From Dehalococcoidia bacterium (GTDB lineage: Bacteria > Chloroflexota > Dehalococcoidia > SHYB01), in NCBI GenBank assembly GCA_965220155.1, contig OZ244810.1, positions 3,445,298-3,509,297 on the forward strand: a stretch of DNA of 64,000 nucleotides, in the 5' to 3' direction. A program made the translations under genes and the position numbers. The notes below the pieces were generated by a model. The model saw only the letters and a program-made list of their open reading frames with translations. It made no database searches and was not told the origin of the DNA. The stretch's first letter is position 1, and each line of letters begins with the position of its first letter. Positions 5,514 through 56,383 of the stretch are shown piece by piece.

Positions 5514-6080
5514 ATGGCCGATACAGGACGGCTGACACTGCTGGACCCTACGCTCCCCTACCCGAGCACCAAGGGTAAGCTAGCACCGCGCCTCGATACC
5601 CTGAACGGAAAGGTCGTGGGGTTCCTCGGGAACTCGTTCCCGGGCGCGGACAGAATGCTGGACAGAGTCCAGGAGATCGTCTCCTCAAAGTACGAACTGG
5701 AGGGGATGGTGGTCCGGCACAAGAGCTACCTGGGCGAACCGGCAACCAAAGAGATGTTCGATGAGATGGTCTCCTCCTGCGATGCCGTCTTCACTGCGAT
5801 AGGCGCTTGAGGCTCATGCTGCTCGGCCCTTGGGGTCGACGCGTTCGCTTTCGAGGAGAAGGGCATCCCGGTAGCAGCCCTGGCCATCGATACCCTGGTC
5901 GACAACGTCGGCAAGATGATCGGCCGGCTCCATGGATTTCCGGAATATCCGTACGTGATCATCCCCGCGCCGTTCATCGAGGGGGTGATGATCCCTGAAG
6001 ACATGTGGGAGCAGAAGATCCAGGACGCGGTGACGAAATCTGAGGAGCTTCTGACCGGTACATCGATCTCCGCCGGCTAG
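5514..6080 (+). CDS. UGSC-motif selenoprotein; in-frame TGA at 5808-5810 read as selenocysteine
   Basis: ORF 5505/5514..5810 ends ...FTAIGA-TGA and the same frame continues GSCCSALGVD... to TAG 6078-6080. Homologous over the whole length, including across the TGA, to the 47536 gene; hairpin 13 nt downstream of TGA. Confidence 0.75.
5823..5839 (+). other. Putative SECIS-like stem-loop downstream of the UGA of the UGSC gene
   Basis: ucggccc/gggucga stem (one G-U), 3-nt loop, starting 13 nt after UGA. Positionally and sequence-conserved with the hairpin at 47826. Confidence 0.55.
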
Positions 6081-10973: not shown

Positions 10974-12008
10974 ATGAAAGTCAGCATGACGTACGACCTC
11001 CGCAACCCGCCCCAGTGGCGGAGGCCCTTCCCGGAGTTCTACCGGGAGTCCCTGGACCACATGGCGTACATGGAGGACCTGGGCTTCGATGCCATCTGGC
11101 TGCAGCAGCACCACTTCGAAGAGTCCGCCTATGGCCCATCCTTCGCGGCGCTCGCGGGATTCCTGGCAGCCCGGACGAAGCGAGTGCGGGTGGGCTCCTT
11201 CATCAAGATTCTGCCGCTTTACCATCCGCTGCTCGTTGCGGAAGAGATGGCATTTCTCGATAACATTCTCGATGGCCGGTTGGACGTGGGGGTGGGTATT
11301 GGCCACCGGCTCCTTGAGTTCAACGTCCTGGGTGTTTCCCCGAAACAACGGCCCTCGAGGATGGAAGAGGGACTCGACATCATGAAGCTGGCATGGACTG
11401 AGGAGCGTTTCAGCTATCAGGGGCGAAGGTTTCAGCTGGACGACGTGGAGGTCTGGCCCAAGCCCATCCAGAAGCCGCATCCCCCTTTGTTCATGGCGGT
11501 ACGGTCACAGAAATCGGCTGAGCGAGCGGCCAGGTACCGGTGTCACCTCGCACCGGCCGCGACCGACCCGGAGGTCTACCACGCGTACACGTCCACTCTC
11601 CGGCGAATGGGCGAGGACCCGGCCGACTATCACGTGACCATCGGCCTCTCGGTCATCATCACGCAAGAAGACCCCGAGAAGGTCTGGGAGCGCCTGCTCC
11701 CGTATGCGGATTACTCCATGCGCTTCTATGACAACGTGGCACGCGAGATTGGGGACCCACCCATGCGCTCAGGCCTGCCCGGATCAGGGCCGATCGGGCC
11801 GGGGGAGTATCGCAGCCGTTTCGTCATCGGGACGGCCGACGACGTGCTCGAGGCCCTCGAGGGTATGCGGCCGAGCTGGTCGTGGGACGGCCTGAAGCTG
11901 GATGAGGTGGCATTGAGGACCCCTCCGCCCGGCCTCCCGCTCACCGACTACATGTCCACGTACGAGACCTTTGCCGCGGAGATCATGCCCGTCCTGCGCA
12001 CCTGGTGA
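10974..12008 (+). CDS. LLM-class flavin/F420-dependent oxidoreductase (luciferase-like monooxygenase)
   Basis: N-terminal (L)GFDAIWLQQHHF and LLM fold-length; GAAGGAG RBS. Confidence 0.8.
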   Translation: MKVSMTYDLRNPPQWRRPFPEFYRESLDHMAYMEDLGFDAIWLQQHHFEESAYGPSFAALAGFLAARTKRVRVGSFIKILPLYHPLLVAEEMAFLDNILDGRLDVGVGIGHRLLEFNVLGVSPKQRPSRMEEGLDIMKLAWTEERFSYQGRRFQLDDVEVWPKPIQKPHPPLFMAVRSQKSAERAARYRCHLAPAATDPEVYHAYTSTLRRMGEDPADYHVTIGLSVIITQEDPEKVWERLLPYADYSMRFYDNVAREIGDPPMRSGLPGSGPIGPGEYRSRFVIGTADDVLEALEGMRPSWSWDGLKLDEVALRTPPPGLPLTDYMSTYETFAAEIMPVLRTW

Positions 12009-43649: not shown

Positions 43650-43816
43650 GGTCCCCCCGATGGTAGTTTTGGTCGGTCCCGCGGTCCCGCCGGGGAATTA
43701 TGGCAAGACACGGCGAAAGAGGAAAGGCGTCGGAGGGGCCGGTAGCACGCCCCAGCTATGGTAGACTCGGCCTAAATCCGGAGGCAGCCCCGGCACCAGG
43801 CTGGGAGGAGTCACCC

Positions 43817-44962
43817 ATGAAGCTGAGCTTGGCGTATGAGATGCAGCGCCCGACGTTGGATGACCATGCGGTCATCGAGGAGACCATCGAGCAATGCGTC
43901 TTTGCGGACGAGATGGGATTCGACACGATCTGGTTCGTGGAGCACCACTTTCTCACCGGGTTCTCCATGTCGCCATGCCCGGAGGTGATCTTCGGCGCCC
44001 TGAGCCGTCTGACCAAGCGCGTCCGGCTTGGCTTCGGCGTCGTCATTCTCCCCTACCATAACCCGATCCGTGTGGCCGAGCGTGTCGCCATGGTGGACCA
44101 CATGTCCCAGGGCCGCGTCGAGTTTGGCACAGGCCGCTCGGCCCCCTACGAGCAGACGGGGATGGGCATCGACCCCCGCGACACGCGCGACATGTGGGAA
44201 GAATCCCTCGAGATGGTGCCGCAGATATGGGAGAACGAGATGTTCTCCTGGGAGGGGAGGTTCTGGAACGTGCCTCCAAGGGAGGTGCGGCCAAAACCGT
44301 ACCAGAAGCCTCATCCACCAATATGGGTGGCGGCATTGCAGAAGTCTACGTACGAGCTGGCGGCGAAGAAGGGGATCGGCGTGATGGCCTTGAGCGTCGT
44401 AGCACCAGCGACCCTCGCTAAACACATCGAGCAGTACAAAGACAGCGTGCGCAAAGCGAGACCGGTTGGAAAGAGCATCAACGACCAGTGGCTCAGCGCA
44501 ACGATGGGTTACTGCGACATGGACAACAAGGCAGGCCGGGAGCTTTCGGCACGGTCGCTGAAGACCCTGTTTGGCCCCGACAAGCCTTACCTGAAAGACC
44601 AGACCGATGTCTACGAAAAGCTGGTCGAGTCCTGGGGCGGCGTACCAGACCACCTGGAGGCGAACTTCGGGCGCTACATCAAGAAGGAGCAGGGGGACGC
44701 GGGGGTGGACCTTTCAGGGGGCTCGACACAGATCTCCCAGGCTGTGTGGGAACAATTCGATGCCGATACCCTTGCGGACAGGGGCGTCATCATCGCGGGC
44801 GATCCGGACAGCTGCCTGCGAGGCATCAAGGCCCACGAAGCGGTCGGTGTGGACCAGCTCCAGTTCATCATGGCCACGGAGACGATCCCTCACGAGAAGG
44901 TGATGTCCTCGATTGAGCTATTCGGAAAACACGTGATACCCAAGCTCAACGGTAAAGACTGA
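43817..44962 (+). CDS. LLM-class flavin/F420-dependent oxidoreductase
   Basis: GFDTIWFVEHHF motif; start ATG 43817 with GGAGGAG RBS (internal to longer ORF). Confidence 0.8.
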   Translation: MKLSLAYEMQRPTLDDHAVIEETIEQCVFADEMGFDTIWFVEHHFLTGFSMSPCPEVIFGALSRLTKRVRLGFGVVILPYHNPIRVAERVAMVDHMSQGRVEFGTGRSAPYEQTGMGIDPRDTRDMWEESLEMVPQIWENEMFSWEGRFWNVPPREVRPKPYQKPHPPIWVAALQKSTYELAAKKGIGVMALSVVAPATLAKHIEQYKDSVRKARPVGKSINDQWLSATMGYCDMDNKAGRELSARSLKTLFGPDKPYLKDQTDVYEKLVESWGGVPDHLEANFGRYIKKEQGDAGVDLSGGSTQISQAVWEQFDADTLADRGVIIAGDPDSCLRGIKAHEAVGVDQLQFIMATETIPHEKVMSSIELFGKHVIPKLNGKD

Positions 44963-47535: not shown

Positions 47536-48078
47536 ATGAAGCTCGTCGACCCGACGATCGGCGTCAGCGCGGCCACCGGGCTGCTCGCAACCAGGGTGGA
47601 GACGCTGGACGACAAAGTCGTTGGCTTCATTTGCAACGGCTACCCCGGAGCGGAGCGCTTCCTGAGACGGGTCGATGAGATCGTCTCGGAAAAGTACAAG
47701 CTTCGGGGCAAGGTGTGGCACATCAAGGACTACATCGGCGAGCCCGCCAAGCCGCACATCCAGGAGGACGTCATCGCCAACTGCGACGTCATCATCACCG
47801 GCCTGGGCGCTTGAGGGTCATGCTGTTCGGCCGTTGCGGCCGAAGCGATTACCCTGGAAGGACACGGCAAGCCGGTAGCAGCTTTCGCGGTGGACACCTT
47901 CGCCAGGACGGTCGGGAAGGCGATGGCCCGACTCCACAGCTTCCCAAACTATCCCCTGGTGGAGATCCCGGCGCCCTTCTTCGAAAGCACGGCGCCTTCC
48001 GACTCCGATTTCGAGACAAAATCGCTGGCCGCAGTCGCCAAGGCGGAGGAGCTCCTCTTTGGCGGGAAACTGGAGTAG
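47536..48078 (+). CDS. UGSC-motif selenoprotein; in-frame TGA at 47812-47814 read as selenocysteine
   Basis: ORF ends ...ITGLGA-TGA then same frame continues GSCCSAVAAE... to TAG 48076-48078. Homologous to the 5514 gene across the TGA. RBS AAAGGAGG. Confidence 0.75.
47826..47844 (+). other. Putative SECIS-like stem-loop downstream of UGA
   Basis: Perfect 7-bp stem uucggcc/ggccgaa with 5-nt loop guugc, starting 12 nt after UGA. Confidence 0.6.
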
Positions 48079-50240: not shown

Positions 50241-51374
50241 TCAGTCCTTCAGGGCCGGGATGACCTCTTTCCCGTACAGCTCCAGGGAGCGCATGGTGTC
50301 CTTGTGGGAAAGGGGCCCGCTCTGGGCCTCGAGTAACAACGACCCGATGCCCAGCCTTTCCTTGACATAACGCAGCTTCTTGATCACGGTATCCGGGCTG
50401 CCCACCACCAGGTGGTAGTTCTCCTGCAGCTCCTCGTAGGTCTGCTCCGACGTCCCCCTGCGCCGCCGGGGGGGCGGGGCGCCGGGCGGCGGAAGGGCGA
50501 CGTAGCCTGGAGGGGACATGTACTCCCTGGGCGCCCTGGTGGGGTAGTTCGTCCTCCAGAGGATCGCCTTCCCCGCCTCCTGCGCCTTTTCATCGGTGTC
50601 GTTCACGTGGCAGCAGATCATGAAAGCGAACTTCTCCGGCCCAGGCTCCCATCCATCGGCGGCCGCAAAGGCCCGGTACTTGCCGAACAGGTCCTCCGCC
50701 ACGTCGAGCGGCGTGAGGAAAGCCGCATACGTATAGCGGTATTTTGCCGCCCATTCGATCGTCTCGGTGCTTCCGGTCCCCGGGGTCCACACGGGGGGAT
50801 GGGGTTTCTGCAGCGGCAGCACCCACGGGTTCACCGTCCGGAAGTGATAGTGTTTGCCTTCCCAGCGGAACGGCCCCGGCTCGGTCCATGTCTTGATGAT
50901 CAGGTCGTGGGCCTCCTCGAAACGCTCCCGGTTGTGGACGGGGTTGGTGTTGTTGGCCCAGCTCTCCACGCCGATGCCGCGCACCACCCCGGAAATGATC
51001 CGTCCCTGGGAGATCACGTCCACCATCGCGATCTCTTCGGCCAAGCGCGGCGGGTTGTCGCTGACCGGGAGCATGTTTCCCAGCATGAGGATCTTCGCGT
51101 TCCTGGTGGTGCGCGCCAGAATCCCCGCGCTGATGTTCACCTCGACGTCCATGCAGGATGGCGTGTTGTGATGCTCGTTGATCATGAGTCCGTCGAAGCC
51201 CACCTCGTCCGCGAACTGGTACTCGTCGAAGTACCGCTTGAACAGGTCGCTGGCCTTGGCGGCGTCGAAATAGGTGTTGGGGAAGGTGAGGCGCATCGCG
51301 GGGAATTTTTCCGCTTCGGACTCCGGGAACTCGGCGTAGGGCATCTCCGTGAAGTAGTAGACGTCTAATGGCAT
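50241..51374 (-). CDS. LLM-class flavin/F420-dependent oxidoreductase
   Basis: VGFDGLMINEHH motif, about 377 aa. Confidence 0.8.
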   Translation of the reverse strand: MPLDVYYFTEMPYAEFPESEAEKFPAMRLTFPNTYFDAAKASDLFKRYFDEYQFADEVGFDGLMINEHHNTPSCMDVEVNISAGILARTTRNAKILMLGNMLPVSDNPPRLAEEIAMVDVISQGRIISGVVRGIGVESWANNTNPVHNRERFEEAHDLIIKTWTEPGPFRWEGKHYHFRTVNPWVLPLQKPHPPVWTPGTGSTETIEWAAKYRYTYAAFLTPLDVAEDLFGKYRAFAAADGWEPGPEKFAFMICCHVNDTDEKAQEAGKAILWRTNYPTRAPREYMSPPGYVALPPPGAPPPRRRRGTSEQTYEELQENYHLVVGSPDTVIKKLRYVKERLGIGSLLLEAQSGPLSHKDTMRSLELYGKEVIPALKD

Positions 51375-54475: not shown

Positions 54476-55411
54476 CTACGCCTGGCGGCCGGCAAGCCGC
54501 CGCTCGAAGGTGATGGTGTCCAGGATCCTCTGGGCCAGTGGAGGGTGTTCGAACCCCAGCTCCGTCTTTACGCGCTCCGGGTCCACCAGCCGAATCAGGT
54601 CGTAGACCCGACCTTCCTCCGGGTCGAAGCCGATGTCGGCGTCCGGGATGAACTCTCTCGTGATGTCCGCGATCTCCTGGAACGTGGCGACCTGGCCGCC
54701 GCTGAGGTAGGCGGGGTAGCGAATCGACGGGGCCTGGGAAAGGCGGAAAAAGATCTCAGCCACGTCCTCGACGTGGACCAGCAGGAACGGGACGTTCGGA
54801 TCGGAGCGGACGGTCACGGGCTTGCCCAGGGCCGCATCGGCGACCATATGGCTGGCGCCCACGGGACCGAACCGACGGGGGGCGGCTCCCCAGACGTAGG
54901 CGGGCCGTACGGCGGCCATGCTCATCCCGTAGCGCTCGGCGTACTGGCCCGCGACGACCTCGTTGAACTGCTTGGCCCAGCCGTACAGGCTGTTGGGATA
55001 GCCGGGGTCGTCCTCCGAAACGACCGTCTGGTCCCCGTAGGCCCGCTGCGGCCCGTGCCGGGCGATGGAGCTGGCGTAGAGCACTCTCCGGACGCCCGTC
55101 AGGCGCGCCGCCTCGAAGGCGTTGTTCATCCCCATCACGTCGATGCGGACGGCCTCCTGCGGAGGAGCGTCGGTCCTCAGCACGTAGGCCATGTTGATCA
55201 CCTGGTCGACGCCGTTTTCGGTGATGGCGGCGATGATGTCGTCGACGTGGGTGATATCCCCCTGCACGAACCGGTACCGGCCGGCCAGGTCGTCGAGGCG
55301 GAAGGTATTCGGGCTGCTATCGAAACACACCGGCTCCTGCCCGGCTTGGACGAGCCGGCGCACGATCCTCGACCCTATGAAGCCTGTACCGCCAATCACG
55401 AGGACTGTCAT
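54476..55411 (-). CDS. NAD-dependent epimerase/dehydratase (SDR extended family)
   Basis: N-terminal VLVIGGTGFIGSRIV Rossmann motif. Confidence 0.8.
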   Translation of the reverse strand: MTVLVIGGTGFIGSRIVRRLVQAGQEPVCFDSSPNTFRLDDLAGRYRFVQGDITHVDDIIAAITENGVDQVINMAYVLRTDAPPQEAVRIDVMGMNNAFEAARLTGVRRVLYASSIARHGPQRAYGDQTVVSEDDPGYPNSLYGWAKQFNEVVAGQYAERYGMSMAAVRPAYVWGAAPRRFGPVGASHMVADAALGKPVTVRSDPNVPFLLVHVEDVAEIFFRLSQAPSIRYPAYLSGGQVATFQEIADITREFIPDADIGFDPEEGRVYDLIRLVDPERVKTELGFEHPPLAQRILDTITFERRLAGRQA

Positions 55412-55531
55412 CTTTCCGCCTCCGGAGTGTGTCGGGTTGCGCGACAGCTATACCGTACGCTGACGCATCAAGGGCCCAGACCGTATACTGGCGTCTCTGA
55501 AGCGGTCCACCAGCGGAAGGAGCAAGCCAGG

Positions 55532-56383
55532 GTGAAAACCGGCATTTTCGTTTTCCATACCGACACGTCCCTCGACCCGGCCATCCTCGCCAGGAGAGCC
55601 GAGGAGCTGGGCTTCGATTCGTTCTGGGTCCCCGAGCATACCATTATTCCCGCGCACACCACGTCGCCTCACCGCGGCTCGGCGGACGGCTCGATCCCGG
55701 AGCCCTACTATCGGATCACAGACCCCTTCGTCGCGCTGGCGCGGGCCTCGGGGGCCACGAAGACGATCAAGCTTGGGACTGGGATATGCCTCGTGCCGGA
55801 GCGGAACCCCCTGGTGCTCGCCAAAGAGGTCGCGACGCTGGACCAACTCTCGGGGGGCCGGTTCATCTTCGGGATTGGGGCTGGATGGCTCAGGGAAGAG
55901 TCGGAGATCCTGGGGGGCGACTTTCCCCGCCGGTGGAGCCAGACTCGTGAAGCCGTCCTGGCGATGAAGGAGCTGTGGACGAAGGAGCCCGCGGAACATC
56001 ACGGCAAGTACTACGATTTCCCGCCCGTCCACTCTCGCCCGAAGCCGGCGCAAAAGCCCCACCCGCCCATCTACCTGGGCAGCACGGACAAGAAGGTCCT
56101 CGAACGGATCGCGGAATGGGGGGATGGATGGATGCCCATCCGGGTCACGATGGAGGACCTGAAGCGCGGCCGGGGGACCCTCGATGAGCTGGCTGCCGCC
56201 GGGGGCCGGGACCCTCGGTCGATCAAGATCCTGGCCTTCGGGGGCTCCGGACAGTACCGGGACCGCAAGAGCCTCGGCGAGCTCGAGGAGGCCGGCGTCG
56301 ATCAGGTGACCGTCTGGCTCGAGCAGACGGAGGGGGACGCAGCCCTGGCGGAGATGGAGCAGGTCGCCGGCCAGGTCCTCTGA
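55532..56383 (+). CDS. LLM-class F420-dependent oxidoreductase
   Basis: GFDSFWVPEH motif; GTG start 55532 with GGAAGGAG RBS (internal to longer ORF). Confidence 0.75.
   Translation: MKTGIFVFHTDTSLDPAILARRAEELGFDSFWVPEHTIIPAHTTSPHRGSADGSIPEPYYRITDPFVALARASGATKTIKLGTGICLVPERNPLVLAKEVATLDQLSGGRFIFGIGAGWLREESEILGGDFPRRWSQTREAVLAMKELWTKEPAEHHGKYYDFPPVHSRPKPAQKPHPPIYLGSTDKKVLERIAEWGDGWMPIRVTMEDLKRGRGTLDELAAAGGRDPRSIKILAFGGSGQYRDRKSLGELEEAGVDQVTVWLEQTEGDAALAEMEQVAGQVL

Follow-up and report, generated by a model that had tools for sequence, protein, structure and literature searches.

The UGSC proteins form a selenoprotein family that was described in 2007-2008 by Zhang and Gladyshev (PMC1976440, PMC2398784). 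Hyphomonas neptunium and an Olavius symbiont were the first organisms in which a UGSC-containing protein was noted (PMC1976440), and the family, characterized by a UxxC motif in which U is selenocysteine (Sec), is among the most abundant selenoproteins of the Global Ocean Sampling, with 255 Sec forms and 21 Cys forms (PMC2398784). It is curated as a selenoprotein family (NF041046; PMC13188914), and reviews of 2022 and 2026 still give its function as unknown (PMC9312934, PMC13188914). Two genes of this family, referred to here as copy 1 and copy 2, are present in a 64,000-nucleotide stretch of DNA from a Dehalococcoidia bacterium (GenBank assembly GCA_965220155.1, contig OZ244810.1, positions 3,445,298 to 3,509,297), which is called the window below. 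Each contains an in-frame TGA that almost certainly encodes selenocysteine. The reading favored for both genes, to which we assign a probability of about 0.92, is that they are UGSC selenoproteins in which UGA is decoded as Sec by means of a selenocysteine insertion sequence (SECIS) hairpin and SelB, yielding a redox UxxC protein with an adjacent partner.

The frame of copy 1 has one internal stop, TGA 5808-5810, which is preceded by SSCDAVFTAIGA and followed by GSCCSALGVDAF (FTAIGA and GSCCSALG directly adjoin it), and ends at TAG 6078-6080. Copy 2 reads ITGLGA before and GSCCSAV after TGA 47812-47814 and also terminates with TAG. Translation therefore bears out the initial annotation of this DNA, which had described 5514-6080 as a single frame running through the TGA to the TAG and 47536-48078 as a second copy with its TGA at the equivalent position. 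The predicted Sec-containing peptides are AIGA-U-GSCCSALGVDAFAFEEK for copy 1 and GLGA-U-GSCCSAVAAEAITLEGHGK for copy 2. The identity of the two proteins, earlier put at about 50%, is 47% upstream of the TGA and 49% downstream of it, so that the part following the TGA, which would be untranslated if the TGA were a stop, is conserved as well as the part preceding it. A scan of the window for further in-frame TGAs with Cys-containing motifs left only the two UGSC sites looking real.

With U read as Cys, the PF24696 “UGSC family” profile (172 positions, gathering score 25 bits) matches copy 1 with 123.9 bits over profile positions 2-171 (residues 9-181) and copy 2 with 110.4 bits over positions 2-151, and the alignment crosses the TGA. 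The NCBIfam model NF041046, “UGSC family (seleno)protein”, scores 77.6 bits for copy 1 and 78.8 bits for copy 2 (E ~1e-22). In an alignment of 34 UGSC sequences, C99, G100 and C102 are invariant, in agreement with the family motif U/C-G-[SGA]-C.

An exhaustive profile hidden Markov model search with the N-terminal half of the UGSC protein returned 912 cluster representatives. Among the best 150 of them, approximately 137 stop exactly one residue before the Sec column, the signature of open reading frames (ORFs) cut at the UGA, and in one the motif is lost. Eight homologs without a TGA are full length (152-197 residues) and have Cys at the Sec column, as GDCGSC, GSCGAC or GDCGGC. The expectation of the initial annotation that full-length homologs would align across the TGA and would carry Cys at the position of U thus agrees with both the profile match and these sequences. 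At the DNA level, 80 loci from species-representative genomes and several metagenome contigs (86 DNA sources) underwent six-frame translation, TGA being taken as U, and the UGSC genes recovered, which come from many phyla, have TGA at the Sec column in 85 out of 85 cases. When the full-length protein (U as C) was used in a word-indexed protein search, one relative only was found, because the Sec forms are deposited truncated.

If the TGA were a true stop, the two genes would be decaying pseudogenes, or would encode naturally short proteins of 92-98 residues, and the downstream frame would be a remnant. Exactly such fragments are called in the public annotation, where only the N-terminal 98 residues of copy 1 and 92 residues of copy 2 are found, as was predicted by the initial annotation, which held that the C-terminal half would be missed; the absence of Sec machinery from the window also speaks for this possibility. 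It is nevertheless extremely improbable, since the 87-89 codons after the TGA are open in both paralogs and match the upstream half in their 49% protein identity, the PF24696 profile aligns through the TGA, the TGA with its open frame recurs in all 85 genes, and the Cys-form homologs are full length.

The UGA might also be read through as an amino acid other than Sec: a Sec-like tRNA charged with Cys could insert Cys, and near-cognate suppression or a reassignment of the code could give Trp or Gly. A few bacteria have been reported to recode UGA from Sec to Cys, and the selenium machinery is not seen in the window. A 989-nucleotide ENA contig encodes a near-identical relative of copy 2 (L086:340-385) in which the Sec column has TGG in place of TGA. 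The same contig has TGG for TGC at the conserved C-D motif and further changes to G close by, and as a result the protein is predicted there as 180 residues with Trp at both positions. This contig looks error-prone, and its TGG at the Sec column is probably a read or assembly error. In the window, TGA terminates 11 of the 31 Pfam-supported genes, and hence the genetic code is standard rather than reassigned. Read-through without Sec is highly improbable also in view of the curation of the family as a selenoprotein and of the conserved, covarying hairpin that is located at SECIS distance from the UGA, a signature of SelB-type recoding.

This hairpin has the sequence UCGGCCC-UUG-GGGUCGA in copy 1 and UCGGCCG-UUG-CGGCCGA in copy 2, each with 7 base pairs. 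In both copies the stem begins at the 13th nucleotide past the TGA, leaving a 12-nucleotide spacer, which is in line with the stem-loop at 5823-5839 in the initial annotation. From copy 1 to copy 2, C-G is swapped for G-C at pair 22-26 and G-U is replaced by G-C at pair 19-29 (positions counted from the T of the TGA). The segments 5802-5828 and 47806-47832, which comprise the TGA and the 5' half of the hairpin, are identical at 25 of 27 nucleotides, the best among all 27-nucleotide windows of the gene pair, compared with 58% nucleotide identity overall. Third codon positions are 77% identical near the TGA and 42% gene-wide. The identity had been attributed to a SECIS constraint, and this attribution holds in part: support for such a constraint comes from family-wide covariation and from the conservation of synonymous sites, while much of the identity is explained by the conserved peptide GA-U-GSCCSA.

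Folding of single sequences is unconvincing, the folding-energy z-scores being -0.28 (copy 1) and -2.56 (copy 2), and support for the hairpin is for this reason taken from comparative data. An ungapped alignment of the 42 nucleotides from the TGA onward was assembled from 71 distinct sequences. At columns 14-22 with 26-34, pairing is seen in 85% of the cells (75% in shuffles), and the covariation score is 0.265 against 0.098, a value reached by none of 500 shuffles, with slid registers giving at most 0.115. Double changes occur at pairs 19-29, 20-28 and 21-27 (21, 5 and 12, respectively). The loop consensus is GUG, with G23 and U24 conserved at 90% or more across the family. In most Sec-form genes U24 is the synonymous third base of an AGU serine codon, even in GC-rich genomes (e.g. 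L034:6382-6384), while the sole Cys-form gene that retains the loop serine (L087) uses AGC. Judged by these codons, the conserved loop U cleanly indicates, at a synonymous site, selection acting on the RNA. When a covariance model is built from other genomes only, with the window sequences left out, it finds exactly two sites in the window, with 31.0 and 30.6 bits and the next match at 8.5 bits, although the model also captures coding conservation and is consequently not fully independent of the protein match.

It could be argued that the hairpin arises only from coding for the conserved peptide S-x-S-V-x-D, without any function in the RNA. The five Cys-form genes retain 5-6 of the 7 pairs, so that part of the complementarity is due to the codons themselves, and the energy of copy 1 is unexceptional. 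The same five genes all lack the GU loop, whereas in the Sec forms the synonymous loop U is conserved at 90% or more. Moreover, double compensatory changes that alter amino acids still preserve the pairing, the signal is lost in slid registers, and the C-G to G-C swap distinguishes the two window copies themselves. A hairpin devoid of RNA function is therefore very unlikely.

Several observations weigh against the interpretation of the two genes as SECIS-dependent selenoproteins. Both proteins are below the NF041046 equivalog cutoff of 125 bits. The folding energy of the hairpin in copy 1 is no better than that of shuffled sequence. The apical loop is UUG in both copies, unlike the GU(G/A/U) of most members; once the closing pair opens, the loops read CUUGG and GUUGC (6 base pairs, 5-nucleotide loop). 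As the hairpin lies within coding sequence, part of its conservation stems from the protein. An Rfam search of the whole window at the gathering threshold, and with E <= 10 around both sites, gave no SECIS or other credible family. Finally, none of selA, selB, selC (tRNA-Sec) and selD, and no tRNA at all, is located within the 64-kb window, so that the decoding machinery is assumed. The sub-cutoff NF041046 score, together with the GA-U-GSCC motif and the UUG loop, places the window proteins in a divergent Chloroflexota subgroup, as clear homologs of the NF041046 proteins that are outside the strict equivalog. The proposal of the initial annotation that copy 1 is a recoded selenoprotein gene is supported by the TGA/Cys column, the homology across the TGA and the RNA hairpin constrained in 71 sequences.

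In the mechanism proposed for these selenoproteins, the 7-base-pair hairpin 12 nucleotides past the UGA would act as a bacterial SECIS and would bring SelB and Sec-tRNA(Sec) to the ribosome. SelB-dependent decoding of the UGA would then yield full-length proteins of 188 and 180 residues instead of the 98- and 92-residue fragments. The Cys located three residues after Sec in U-G-S-C would most likely resolve Sec to a selenenylsulfide, forming a redox centre. The UGSC redox subunit most likely works with the ~375-residue protein encoded by the neighboring gene, in the role of a second subunit or of a redox partner.

The UGSC protein is predicted to be a small α/β domain with a Rossmann/flavodoxin-like fold. 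The model of a Cys-form homolog (P0136) has five β-α units, while the N-terminal ~33 residues, among them the conserved LDPT motif, are predicted with high confidence as an extended arm without secondary structure. In this model, the central β-strand is followed by a helix whose N-terminal end carries the Sec position. The GOS paper of 2008 stated a “likely Trx-like fold” (PMC2398784); the predicted model is Rossmann/flavodoxin-like instead of thioredoxin-like. A comparison of the UGSC profile with PDB sequences found nothing real.

The coordinates of the UGSC genes, their recoded codons and hairpins, and the partner genes are collected in Table 1.

Table 1. Features of the two UGSC loci, numbered from the first nucleotide of the window
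Feature	Position	Strand	Description
UGSC-family selenoprotein gene, copy 1	5514..6080	+	single frame; 188 aa, Sec = residue 99; PF24696 124 bits (residues 9-181); NF041046 78 bits
In-frame UGA, almost certainly selenocysteine (U of U-G-S-C), copy 1	5808..5810	+	column is TGA in 85/85 homologous genes elsewhere, Cys in full-length homologs
SECIS-type hairpin, copy 1	5823..5839	+	stem 5823-5829/5833-5839, loop UUG 5830-5832; family covariation; covariance model 30.6 bits
Partner gene 1, 377 aa	4350..5483	+	30 nt upstream of UGSC copy 1; family without Pfam or NCBIfam model
UGSC-family selenoprotein gene, copy 2	47536..48078	+	180 aa, Sec = residue 93; PF24696 110 bits; NF041046 79 bits
In-frame UGA, almost certainly selenocysteine, copy 2	47812..47814	+	TGA at the Sec column of the family
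SECIS-type hairpin, copy 2	47827..47843	+	stem 47827-47833/47837-47843, loop UUG; z = -2.56; covariance model 31.0 bits
Partner gene 2, 378 aa	45171..46307	+	tandem paralog upstream of partner gene 3
Partner gene 3, 375 aa	46350..47477	+	58 nt upstream of UGSC copy 2

The partner family has over 6,000 homologs in the databases, each labelled “hypothetical”, and the protein contains two nearly invariant Cys residues. The partner bears Cys80 and Cys155 as well as an N-H-x-A-S loop. No Pfam or NCBIfam model matched it, and comparison of its profile with the PDB found nothing real and no solved structural relative. Among 100 partner genes in the fetched loci, 81 have an adjacent UGSC gene on the same strand, 64 in the order partner-then-UGSC and 17 in the reverse order, and a partner gene is near four of the five Cys-form UGSC genes. 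Among cultured organisms, Sheuella amnicola NBD-18 (L077) carries the module. The two are also fused in a single ORF (L004:2467-4194) of the Chloroflexi metagenome-assembled genome (MAG) JACPQD010000021.1, where GIGA-TGA-GGC is followed by the partner domain (NLWTDGLPIMPPT...). Three UGSC genes, interleaved with genes of SBP_bac_5 solute-binding proteins, are present in this 13-kb stretch. A UGSC fusion to an “Unknown_1” domain has been mentioned (PMC2398784), and this domain is probably the partner family. The linkage between the two is genetic, and it suggests that the UGSC protein and its partner may interact physically or functionally. Neither tblastn with the window neighbors nor de novo clustering of 598 ORFs from 81 loci revealed a third neighbor gene recurring beyond the pair, and promoter and terminator scans were uninformative.

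The closest database relatives are Chloroflexi MAGs. Luciferase-like (LLM/F420-type) oxidoreductases, Amidohydro_2/3 proteins, family III CoA-transferases and SBP_bac_5 proteins abound in the window, with catabolic paralogs at, e.g., 10974-12008, 43700-44962, 50241-51374 and 54545-56383, a paralog-rich repertoire typical of Dehalococcoidia/SAR202-like Chloroflexota. Relative to a sister genome of ~98% identity (L001), the segment 31943-41579 is a 9.6-kb insertion. It encodes, all on the minus strand, a UvrD-like helicase, a DUF5677 protein, a DNA methylase, a PIN-domain protein and a ResIII helicase, and is flanked by an 18-19-nucleotide direct repeat, AGAGGGGTTGGGGAGCCTA. The insertion has the appearance of a mobile island for restriction-modification or defence.

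The selenoprotein assignment itself will not surprise a specialist, and the case is the correct catch of a systematic annotation error in a long-known selenoprotein family rather than a discovery. Gene callers routinely split UGSC genes in two, and because both genes described here and essentially all of their relatives are deposited as hypothetical fragments of 92-98 residues, the selenoproteome of these Chloroflexota is undercounted. The linkage to the partner and the predicted non-thioredoxin fold are modest additions, which make the function of the family experimentally approachable: the tight pairing of UGSC with the 375-residue partner, sometimes as a fusion, provides a concrete two-gene unit for expression and assay.

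The arrangement of a small or medium-sized UxxC selenoprotein gene beside that of a larger non-seleno subunit is reminiscent of the Stickland-type reductases, namely glycine reductase (GrdA/GrdB/GrdE) and D-proline reductase (PrdA/PrdB). The analogy is one of logic only, as these enzymes have no sequence relationship to UGSC and the partner matches nothing in the PDB. A relation to GrdB/PrdB was rejected, PF07355 matching none of the 34 UGSC sequences at E <= 1, and a pyruvoyl or other cofactor in the UGSC/partner system would be pure speculation. With the thioredoxin-fold UxxC/CxxU selenoproteins (Trx-like, Prx-like and SelW-like), UGSC shares the UxxC redox motif, placed where a helix begins after a β-strand.

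The hairpin is comparable to bacterial SECIS elements that bind SelB, such as that of E. coli fdhF, in being located within the gene, in starting 11-13 nucleotides after the UGA and in having a short apical loop with G and U in an otherwise gene-family-specific sequence. It differs in that the UGSC stem has only 7 base pairs with a 3-nucleotide loop (or 6 base pairs with a 5-nucleotide loop) and no evident bulged U.

The closest likeness is to the UGSC family itself, represented by ABI76733.1 from Hyphomonas neptunium. The window proteins are similar to it in length, in the end-to-end profile match and in the U-G-S-C column, and the genes share the TGA followed by a hairpin, in a family of aquatic and soil bacteria in which Sec forms far outnumber Cys forms. 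In most members the motif is GD-U-GSC(T/S) and the loop is GUG; the window copies have GA-U-GSCC and a UUG loop, and their nearest analogues, L009:6387 and L015:6391, belong to this same GA-U-GSCC, UUG subgroup.
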